Shown here piece after piece: positions 424 through 1,993 of a stretch of DNA of 32,000 bases. The translations under genes and the position numbers were made by a program. The stretch covers positions 510,001 through 542,000 of the forward strand of contig JASBSB010000006.1 of the NCBI GenBank assembly GCA_030149205.1. The letters are read 5' to 3'. The DNA comes from Candidatus Heimdallarchaeota archaeon. GTDB lineage: Archaea; Asgardarchaeota; Heimdallarchaeia; Heimdallarchaeales; Kariarchaeaceae. The notes under the pieces are model-generated. The model had not been told where the DNA came from, searched no databases, and worked only from the letters and a program-made list of their open reading frames with translations. Within the stretch, counting starts at the first letter, position 1; the number at the start of each line of letters is the position of its first letter.

Positions 424-1035
424 TCATTCTTTTGTCTTAAGTTTCTCCTTTTCTTCTTTTGCCTTTTCTCGTTGAAGAATAAAGCTATGAGTAAACTGAT
501 AAAGCCACTCCATAATTTCTAACGATACAGATGGCTTGTTCTCAAATACATTCCAACCCCTATCATAAATTCGATTCAAACTCAGAGATTCAATAATTTG
601 GGAACGGCTTAAAGACCCTATTTGAGTAGTCTCTGGAATTACTATCGCAAGTGGTAAGGCCTTATCCTCGGTTTGCCAAATAAAATCTTTCCAAAAGGAT
701 TTCCTGATTTCTATCACTAAATCATCATCGACATCAAGATTTAGAACAATAGCATCAACTGAACTATTAGAGAAATTTTTCTTCCATTTGGAAAAGGATT
801 CGACTTCTTCAACCAACCATTCCGTCTTATCGTCAGAGGATTCATTTAATGAATCAAACAGACTTTTTGGCTTTCCAACCTTAAGATATAGGATTTTAGG
901 ATGGATGATTGAATACTTATTAAAGGCGAATCGAAGAGTATCCATAATTGAAATATTAAATAGACTTATAATAACTCTTCTTTTTGAATCCCAATGAAGA
1001 ATTAAAGTATTTTCATTAAAGGTTTTTATTAACAT
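424..1035 (-). CDS. Hypothetical protein, probable degenerate Arf-like small-GTPase fold (pseudo-GTPase)
   Basis: 203-aa ORF. The C-terminal half aligns by eye with Arf (WKKNFSNSSVDAIVLNLD; LPLAIV; GSLSRSQIIESLSLNRIYDRGWNVF; MEWL), but the G1, G3 and G4 motifs are absent. Confidence 0.6.
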   Translation of the reverse strand: MLIKTFNENTLILHWDSKRRVIISLFNISIMDTLRFAFNKYSIIHPKILYLKVGKPKSLFDSLNESSDDKTEWLVEEVESFSKWKKNFSNSSVDAIVLNLDVDDDLVIEIRKSFWKDFIWQTEDKALPLAIVIPETTQIGSLSRSQIIESLSLNRIYDRGWNVFENKPSVSLEIMEWLYQFTHSFILQREKAKEEKEKLKTKE

Positions 1036-1354: not shown

Positions 1355-1993
1355 GTGAATAAGAAAAGAATAACTGTAATTTGTTTCCTTATTATTTTGA
1401 CTTTTTTAATCTCTCATTCACAAGCAACAGCCTATTCTGCAACGAGAGGAGTTGAACTCGGTGATACAATCAGGCTCGCATATAAGGGTGTGTTTAAGAA
1501 TGGAACAATTTTTGACCAAAACCAAAATGCTGTATTCAAGAATCTGCAATACGGAAATTATATTGATGGTTTTGTCACCAATGTGCTTGGAATGAAAATT
1601 GGAGAGTCTAAAACTTTTGAAGTTCCTCCATCTCAGGGGTACACTCAAAAAGGTCACAAATTATATGGACTTACCCTAATTTTCACTGTAAAGATACTTG
1701 GGGTACAGGGTTACACTAGTGCCGCTCCTCAATCGTCTGGTCCTAACATTCTAAGTCAGACATTTACAGTGATCGCGTGGATTGGGGGTATCATTCTTGC
1801 CCCAATAGTTGGTTATAGAGGTTATGAATATTTTAAAAACTCCACAGTTATAAACAAAAAGATTAATGTGTGTTCTGTATGTGGTGATAAGTCAGACGGT
1901 ATCTGTGCAAGTTGTGGTTTTCCATACTGCAGATCAGATTTTAGAAAGGGTTGCCCAAACTGTCATGCAAACACGTTCAAGCCTAAGTCCTAA
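1355..1993 (+). CDS. Membrane-anchored FKBP-type peptidyl-prolyl isomerase with signal peptide, one TM helix and a C-terminal Cys-rich zinc finger
   Basis: GTG start. Basic-hydrophobic N-terminus with an AxA site (QATA). FKBP core GDTIRLAYKGVFKNGTIFD...YIDGF...GMKIGESKTFEVPPSQGY...LIFTVKIL. TM segment FTVIAWIGGIILAPIVGY. Seven Cys in the last 40 aa. Confidence 0.85.
   Translation: MNKKRITVICFLIILTFLISHSQATAYSATRGVELGDTIRLAYKGVFKNGTIFDQNQNAVFKNLQYGNYIDGFVTNVLGMKIGESKTFEVPPSQGYTQKGHKLYGLTLIFTVKILGVQGYTSAAPQSSGPNILSQTFTVIAWIGGIILAPIVGYRGYEYFKNSTVINKKINVCSVCGDKSDGICASCGFPYCRSDFRKGCPNCHANTFKPKS

Follow-up and report, generated by a model that had tools for sequence, protein, structure and literature searches.

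Folding catalysts that are anchored in a membrane and act outside the cytoplasm are known in bacteria (PrsA, PpiD, TlpA) and in the endoplasmic reticulum of eukaryotes (FKBP11, TMX). None of these is known to have a cytoplasmic zinc-finger tail, and a literature search returned no paper on a membrane-anchored foldase that carries one. Here we examine the gene at positions 1355–1993 (plus strand) of a 32,000-nucleotide stretch of DNA (the window) from a Candidatus Heimdallarchaeota archaeon (GenBank assembly GCA_030149205.1, contig JASBSB010000006.1, positions 510,001 to 542,000). It codes for an FKBP-type protein with one transmembrane (TM) helix and a cysteine-rich finger at its C-terminus. 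This architecture is conserved and without description in the literature; it is a variation on the theme of the membrane-anchored foldase. We consider it probable, if far from certain, that the protein is a surface foldase whose finger is part of a shared cytoplasmic docking or assembly tail, by analogy with FKBP11 and TMX.

Human FKBP11 (FKBP19) is a transmembrane FKBP found at the ribosome-bound translocon, which comprises Sec61 and the oligosaccharyltransferase, OST (PMC12804085). Its basic cytosolic C-terminal helix, which adjoins uL22 and H24 of the 28S rRNA, is important for ribosome binding, and it is this tail, not the FKBP domain, that makes the contact on the cytosolic side (PMC12804085). 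Like FKBP11, the product of the window gene appears to consist of a signal peptide, a single FKBP domain, one TM helix and a short, positively charged cytosolic tail. We take FKBP11 as the nearest analogue in function; beyond the generic FKBP fold, the likeness is drawn as an analogy and not as a homology.

Architecture and conservation of the protein

The gene (1355..1993, +) has a GTG start and a TAA stop, and its 212-residue product is identical (100%) to a protein already called in this genome. A first-pass annotation, made from the sequence alone, had described a type I membrane protein with a signal peptide, an FKBP domain, a linker and one TM helix, and all these parts are recovered by Pfam, hydropathy and AlphaFold2 (AF2) modelling. 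The signal peptide would occupy residues 1–26 (1355..1432, +): a KKR n-region and a hydrophobic core (residues 6–24) are followed by the sequence A-T-A|Y-S, which suggests cleavage at A-T-A|Y. In nearly all the aligned relatives, [AGS]-Y directly follows the hydrophobic core.

The FKBP_C domain (PF00254; residues 33–114, 1451..1696, +) is recognized by Pfam with an E-value of 3.3e-14 and 53.4 bits, for a curated cut-off of 21.1, and is also supported by alignments to solved FKBPs. It is of the short type, without the insert-in-flap, and its best matches among solved structures are eukaryotic. These alignments show that the pocket residues Y43, F53, D54, F61, I70, F73, Y96 and F110 are kept. 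In FKBP12 numbering they are the equivalents of Y26, F36, D37, F46, I56, W59, Y82 and F99, so the Trp position of FKBP12 is occupied by a Phe (F73) in the window protein. In the family alignment, F73 never varies and Y96 and F110 hardly do. The domain is a putative peptidyl-prolyl isomerase. The N-G-T sequon pointed out in the first-pass annotation (N49-G50-T51) is present, but it sits in the ordinary x-[DN]-G-x-x-F-D turn of FKBPs, and we rejected it as a special feature.

The ectodomain is followed by a Ser/Pro/Ala linker (TSAAPQSSGPN; 1706..1759, +) where the model confidence is low, with a predicted local distance difference test score (pLDDT) of 54 over residues 121–130. The single TM helix (residues 136–154, 1760..1816, +) has a mean hydropathy of 1.8 and lies within a long helix, residues 132–162, that passes through the membrane segment in the AF2 model. 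A juxtamembrane stretch (1817..1870, +) with R155, K161, K168 and K169 shows the positive-inside pattern expected of the cytoplasmic side. The finger itself (residues 173–212, 1871..1990, +), delineated by the family alignments and the AF2 model, contains the motif C173-x2-C176-x7-C184-x2-C187-x4-C192-x2-D195-x4-C200-P-x-C203, which is found exactly at nucleotides 1871–1963, where it had been placed at first; a conserved strand, N-T-F-x-P, comes after the last Cys. The AF2 model of the whole protein, based on an alignment of 21 sequences, has a mean pLDDT of 85.6, with values of 92–98 in the FKBP core and 87–94 in the finger.

The orientation in the membrane is indicated by the distribution of Lys and Arg: there are on average 4.0 of them between the TM helix and the first Cys, versus 1.2 in the 15 residues before the helix, and the excess lies on the finger side in 59 of the 63 family members. 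This places the finger in the cytoplasm and agrees with the type I topology proposed at the outset.

A word-indexed search with the whole protein found two close relatives only (55–57% identity), while an exhaustive phmmer search of 1.84 billion cluster representatives with residues 125–212 found 19 relatives, of 179–290 residues, all with their parts in this order. We then scanned 400 genomes of the phylum with a finger profile. It matches 11/11 genomes of the window's own family (f1), 1/1 of f2, 30/31 of f3 and 18/22 of f5, which is in the same class, and none in f4, f6 and f7; in the rest of the phylum the scan gave weak partial matches only. The f3 genomes have two to four copies each, mostly in tandem, and the genome of the window has a single one. 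In the loci that we fetched, all full-length open reading frames (ORFs) with a finger (51/51) also encode an FKBP domain, a TM helix and Lys or Arg before the first Cys; one further finger ORF (L036) is truncated at its end, so that its FKBP part could not show there.

Altogether, the layout is seen in more than 100 proteins, all from a single Asgard class that the sources name Heimdall- or Hodarchaeota; the database members bear the names Heimdallarchaeota, Heimdallarchaeaceae, Heimdallarchaeum aukensis, Hodarchaeota and Promethearchaeota. The family does not extend beyond Heimdallarchaeia, among which is a Hodarchaeales-type family. In 21 representatives and 28 further genomic copies, C173, C184, C187, C192, C200 and C203 are invariant and C176 nearly so, which shows that the finger motif is not a product of chance.

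The putative zinc finger

In f3 and f5 the finger has eight cysteines, C-x2-C-x7-C-x2-C-x4-C-x2-C-x4-C-x2-C, and this C8 form is the ancestral one; in f5 the second pair is C-x4-C. The loop after the first pair is x7 (x13 in a subgroup), and the intervals x2, x4 and x2 that come next hold for all members. The first six ligands follow the pattern C-x2-C-x(7-12)-C-x2-C-x4-C-x2-[CH], which is the consensus spacing of B-box1 domains. Assuming that the ligands pair as in a cross-brace, we propose that C173, C176, C192 and D195 bind a first zinc ion, and C184, C187, C200 and C203 a second one.

When the finger is modelled alone, AF2 returns two short strands and, according to DSSP, no helix (pLDDT 86.9), so that we predict a helix-less cross-brace. 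The neighbours of this model found by Foldseek and VIA are cross-brace domains of the RING, U-box, B-box, ZZ and HIT types, the best being RING, U-box, B-box and ZZ, which is consistent with the fold class that the first-pass annotation had suggested by comparison with TFIIH p44/Ssl1. Fingers of the p44/Ssl1 and AN1 types are not among the Foldseek and VIA rows listed, a listing that does not exclude them; the Pfam zf-AN1 family matches 3/21 finger members, with a best E-value of 0.022.

The same annotation had kept in reserve a HIT- or B-box-type interaction finger, and this turns out to be the better supported half of its proposal. Besides the B-box1 spacing, the best recurring Pfam match is ANCHR-like_BBOX (PF22586), with 12/21 members at E ≤ 1; the best of them reaches 26.5 bits for a cut-off of 27, and the finger of the window about 13 bits. 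The matches to zf-HIT, PHD-like and zf-B_box are weaker. A profile of 28 finger sequences, compared to the sequences of the PDB, matches the cysteine-rich domain (CRD) of the piggyBac transposase (5lme, E 0.0026), with all eight ligands aligned, then the B-box of ZFYVE19 (2d8v, E 0.0086) and the B-box1 of PML (2mvw, E 0.0096).

The finger is like B-box1 and ANCHR-like B-boxes in the spacing of its first six ligands and in its predicted fold, a small cross-brace. Unlike in B-box1, the last pair is a C-P-x-C knuckle four residues further on, which takes the place of the terminal His pair of B-boxes, H-x(4-9)-H. B-boxes are moreover soluble and eukaryotic, whereas this finger is the tail of a membrane protein in archaea. 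The piggyBac CRD is also a cross-brace of about 40 residues, and the alignment of its ligands extends to the terminal C-x2-C, but the E-value is only 0.0026, its loop is x11 rather than x7, and it is the DNA-binding domain of a transposase, a context without parallel in the window's family. On the whole, a docking module of the B-box type is a closer likeness for the finger than a ubiquitin ligase of the RING type.

The genome of the window also has a small stand-alone ORF (G000:C4:795465-795731; L050:1369-1626, +) whose 45 C-terminal residues form a C8 finger of spacing C-x2-C-x7-C-x2-C-x4-C-x2-C-x7-C-x2-C. It passes the ANCHR-like_BBOX threshold with 27.9 bits, and is the sole such match in this genome.

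In the family of the window, site 2 (C184, C187, C200, C203) is invariant, while the sequences indicate that site 1 is degenerate. The window protein has seven Cys and Asp195. In f1-type members, the residue at position 195 (the sixth ligand) is mostly Ser, and Cys in three representatives. Among these representatives and the loci, Ser195 always occurs with His175 in the first knuckle (C-x-H-C), and when position 195 is Asp (as in the window protein), His or Cys, position 175 is not His. The single f2 member has both the His and the Cys at these positions. In the closest relatives of the window protein, which belong to its genus, Cys176 is replaced by Gly and position 195 is a His. The pattern suggests that ligands have been swapped at site 1, although shared ancestry may explain part of it.

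A tail common to two folding catalysts

The tail is not restricted to FKBPs. In f3 genomes, a TM helix and a C8 finger are also fused to a thioredoxin-like ectodomain of the Redoxin/AhpC-TSA type with a WCPPC or WCSPC motif, as in the proteins encoded at L062:3211-4158 (+) and L063:4010-4822 (−), both from genomes of this sister family. In L062, an ORF for a secreted FKBP-like protein without a finger (1731-2225) lies 1 kb upstream of the fusion. When longer proteins were searched with the finger profile, the matches listed, at least 120, were either of the length of the FKBP form or fusions to TlpA/thioredoxin. Most of the former had no precomputed Pfam domain, and FKBP_C was the domain where one was given; among the matches listed, the fusions are 244–314 residues long, and the names, where given, are Heimdall- or Hodarchaeota.

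With their thioredoxin ectodomain (CxxC), their TM helix and a sequence that serves as signal or anchor, these sister proteins are built like eukaryotic TMX and bacterial TlpA and ResA, which, unlike them, are not known to have a zinc-finger tail. The sharing of one tail by two different folding catalysts is an argument for a role in positioning or assembling foldases at the surface, and against an action on any one substrate.

The mechanism that we favour is the following. A cleavable signal peptide would bring the FKBP domain, a peptidyl-prolyl isomerase of the short type, to the cell surface, where it would most likely serve as a foldase or holdase for exported proteins. One TM helix would anchor the protein, and the finger of about 40 residues, with two zinc ions and of the B-box1/piggyBac-CRD type, would stay in the cytoplasm. 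The TM helix and finger together would form a portable module used by different surface folding catalysts (FKBP, TlpA-like thioredoxin), whose most likely job is docking or assembly: the catalysts would be held at a site defined from the cytoplasm, or in an oligomer. Our analyses document the architecture, the signals of topology, the conservation, the class of fold, the exchange of ectodomains and the neighbouring genes; the isomerase activity, the binding of zinc and a docking rather than catalytic role of the finger are inferences.

Several observations weigh against this interpretation. Neither Foldseek (E ≥ 0.05) nor VIA (Z ≤ 4.2) gives structural matches strong enough to tell RING, U-box, B-box and ZZ folds apart, and every sequence match of the finger to a named family is at or below threshold. 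As for the comparison with FKBP11, the tail of the latter is a basic helix and that of the window protein a two-zinc cross-brace finger, so that the analogy is one of layout only and does not extend to a contact with the translocon or the ribosome. The tail is rich in Lys and Arg, the finger having an apparent mean charge of +5.4, but this basic charge is largely offset by the thiolate charge expected of two Zn(Cys)4 sites; these centres contribute about −4, and we discounted the basic tail as evidence for nucleic-acid binding.

Three traits of the family are reminiscent of eukaryotes: the short type of its FKBP, a cross-brace finger of the B-box/RING superfamily and, in one family, a co-inherited Arf-like protein. 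Going by the source names, the proteins come from the Heimdallarchaeia, the archaea at present placed nearest to the eukaryotes. If foldases are docked by the tail at the export site or to a GTPase-fold partner, it gives a testable handle on the beginnings of the organisation of the secretory pathway; if it is only an anchor, what we describe is a modest new domain architecture.

Neighbouring genes and possible partners of the tail

A gene transcribed divergently from the FKBP gene (424..945, −) codes for a protein of about 170 residues that we call ArfL. Its ORF runs to 1035, but the resulting 30-residue N-terminal extension is shared by no relative, and the relatives start at the Met encoded at position 945 of the window. 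Of the 33 PDB matches of an ArfL profile, all but one designed fibre are related to Arf/Arl: 31 are chains of Arf/Arl GTPases (collinear, best E 0.004) and two are chains of the ARL2-binding protein. The Pfam family Arf matches with E 0.006, and the Atlas look-alikes of two ArfL members are CENP-M, Ras, Arf and ARL15/16, at 0.85–0.89. The P-loop is reduced to a remnant, L-K-V-G-K-P (R-V-G-K-T-T in the relatives), three residues shorter than in Arf, and the NKxD motif is lost, I-P-x-T being found instead, so that ArfL is probably a pseudo-GTPase.

The divergent ArfL/FKBP-finger pair is present in 14/14 f1 loci with sufficient flank, from six genera, and in three contexts. In the first one, the order is RpoA', a ParB_N-like gene, the pair and an AAA gene. 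In the window, the pair is inverted as a unit relative to this RpoA'/ParB_N-like/AAA arrangement, a conclusion drawn from other f1 genera, where the ParB_N-like gene stands between RpoA' and the pair. The third context, PAP2/pair/RsmB, occurs in the window's own genus. We note that positions 1–285 (−) of the window hold the start of rpoA' without rpoB upstream, and that the ArfL/FKBP pair is in that place.

In one f3 genus (g12), a Ras-family GTPase gene (136 bits) lies upstream of tandem FKBP-finger genes, on the same strand. In the g12 loci L023, L026 and L035, three FKBP-TM-finger paralogues follow one another in tandem, the stop codon of one overlapping or abutting the start codon of the next, and downstream of them is a gene of about 490 codons with an RNase_E_G-like region.

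Among the alternatives to a general docking or assembly tail, the one that survives best is that the finger is a membrane receptor or effector site for a protein with the small-GTPase fold, ArfL in f1 and the Ras-family GTPase in one genus of a sister family. The two proteins of the pair would then make up a GTPase-coupled membrane module for the recruitment, sorting or SR-beta-like translocon docking of surface foldases. The persistence of the divergent pair in six genera and through three contexts, the Arf-like character of ArfL and the co-directional Ras gene of g12 speak for it. On the other hand, the Ras link is limited to one genus and has to be counted as one event; no GTPase gene neighbours the finger gene in the complete f3 genome G015, which is from another genus, or in the f5 and f2 loci; and hhalign found no relation between ArfL and the Ras neighbour of f3. 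Small GTPases are numerous in Asgard genomes, so that a single adjacency may have arisen by chance, and the two genes may be kept divergent by a promoter region that they share, not by any binding between their products.

The link with GTPases is suggestive, not general, and we regard this alternative as rather unlikely. That the finger tail is the membrane docking site of the co-inherited ArfL (and of the Ras-family GTPase in one sister genus) we hold to be slightly less probable still. If it were so, the closest archaeal relatives of eukaryotes would already link proteins of the small-GTPase fold to the cytosolic tails of type I membrane proteins; since the latter carry folding enzymes of the type found in the lumen, this would be a forerunner of the recruitment of Arf or SR-beta type to secretory membranes.

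The first-pass annotation had preferred a ubiquitin ligase: the finger would act as a minimal E3 of RING-like type, recruiting an E2 to ubiquitylate the clients or the membrane proteins flagged by the FKBP ectodomain, in a process resembling endoplasmic-reticulum-associated degradation (ERAD). We find this very unlikely. It is true that the finger would share with RING-H2 and C4C4 RINGs (including TFIIH p44/Ssl1) an eight-ligand cross-brace and does have their terminal CPxC, that its top Foldseek rows are IAP-type RINGs ending in CPxC (IDOL, cIAP, XIAP, Cbl), and that C-x-[VI]-C, CPxC and a Lys behind the last Cys are seen in many finger members. Six proteins of the window's genome are above the zf-RING_2 cut-off, and their core, C-x2-C-x4-[CH]-x2-[CH], has the spacing of the finger.

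However, all the RING profiles tried on the finger (zf-RING_2, zf-C3HC4_3, zf-rbx1, zf-ANAPC11) stay below threshold, the best being zf-ANAPC11 (E 0.2, 12 bits), and the FKBP-finger gene does not appear in the genome-wide match lists of zf-RING_2 or zf-C3HC4_3. Common to the RINGs of this genome are C-x-[IV]-C, a helix some 13 residues long with the sequence H-L-x2-W-L, and CPxC-[RK]; where they have this central Trp helix, which contacts the E2, the finger has four residues between ligands 6 and 7, and its model is helix-less. The hhalign comparison with the genome-RING profile gives a probability of 33%, and the two align only across a gap at the position of the helix. The finger also differs from RINGs by the absence of the conserved linchpin and by a first loop shorter than the RING minimum. 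In RINGs, zinc site 1 shapes the E2-binding loop. In the finger, the ligands of this site vary (Ser, Asp, His or Cys at position 195, Gly for Cys176 in the closest relatives), and position 175 is a His in most f1 members, not a hydrophobic E2 contact.

The genomic context does not help this alternative either. The genome does encode ubiquitin, with its gene beside that of an E1, and, at L002:1504-1911, a canonical E2 with HPN...C, as the first-pass annotation had expected, yet their co-occurrence with the FKBP-finger protein is uninformative, since UQ_con, the E2 family, is found in 83/83 genomes of the class, with or without that protein. No ubiquitin-system gene is a conserved neighbour of the FKBP-finger gene in the loci compared. 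A UQ_con match 7 kb upstream (C2:503008) was considered as a linked E2 and rejected: in relatives it travels with the RNA polymerase/S12 block, not with the FKBP gene. Last, the ectodomain would act on proteins that are already outside the cell, so that a cytosolic ligase and its E2~Ub would have no access to the clients of the FKBP. The idea of an ERAD-like E3 should not be carried forward without biochemical evidence.

B-boxes often self-associate, and the finger could in principle be mainly a self-association module that clusters FKBP and thioredoxin paralogues into a hetero-oligomeric folding platform at the surface. The B-box-type similarity fits, as do the f3 genomes, where 2–3 tandem FKBP paralogues and the thioredoxin form all have the same tail, but the window's genome has a single finger copy, hence hetero-assembly cannot be its role there, and we think this highly improbable as the main function. 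The weakest proposal, which we all but set aside, is a trans-membrane signalling device whose ectodomain senses the folding load and whose finger binds a nucleic acid or a regulator as a membrane-tethered regulator: the best PDB sequence match is indeed the DNA-binding finger of the piggyBac transposase, and the tail is rich in Lys and Arg, but this match is marginal (E 0.0026), and the family shows no sign of release from the membrane and no linked regulator or target genes.

Some minor observations concern the ubiquitin system of the window's genome. At L007:1237-2460 (+) (G000:C2:577097-578320), the gene for an 81-residue ubiquitin-like protein (1237-1482) abuts that for a ThiF/E1-like protein of 325 residues (1483-2460). 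The ubiquitin-like product needs C-terminal processing, since its GG is followed by LEY. Downstream of the E1-like gene and convergent with it is the gene for a multi-pass membrane protein of 314 residues with an N-terminal CxxC...CxxC ribbon. The six RING proteins (loci L041-L048, for example G000:C2:619586-619717 and C8:630552-630674), two of which have about 1000 residues, have C-x2-C, not C-x-H, for their second pair of ligands, and the Trp of their helix is invariant.

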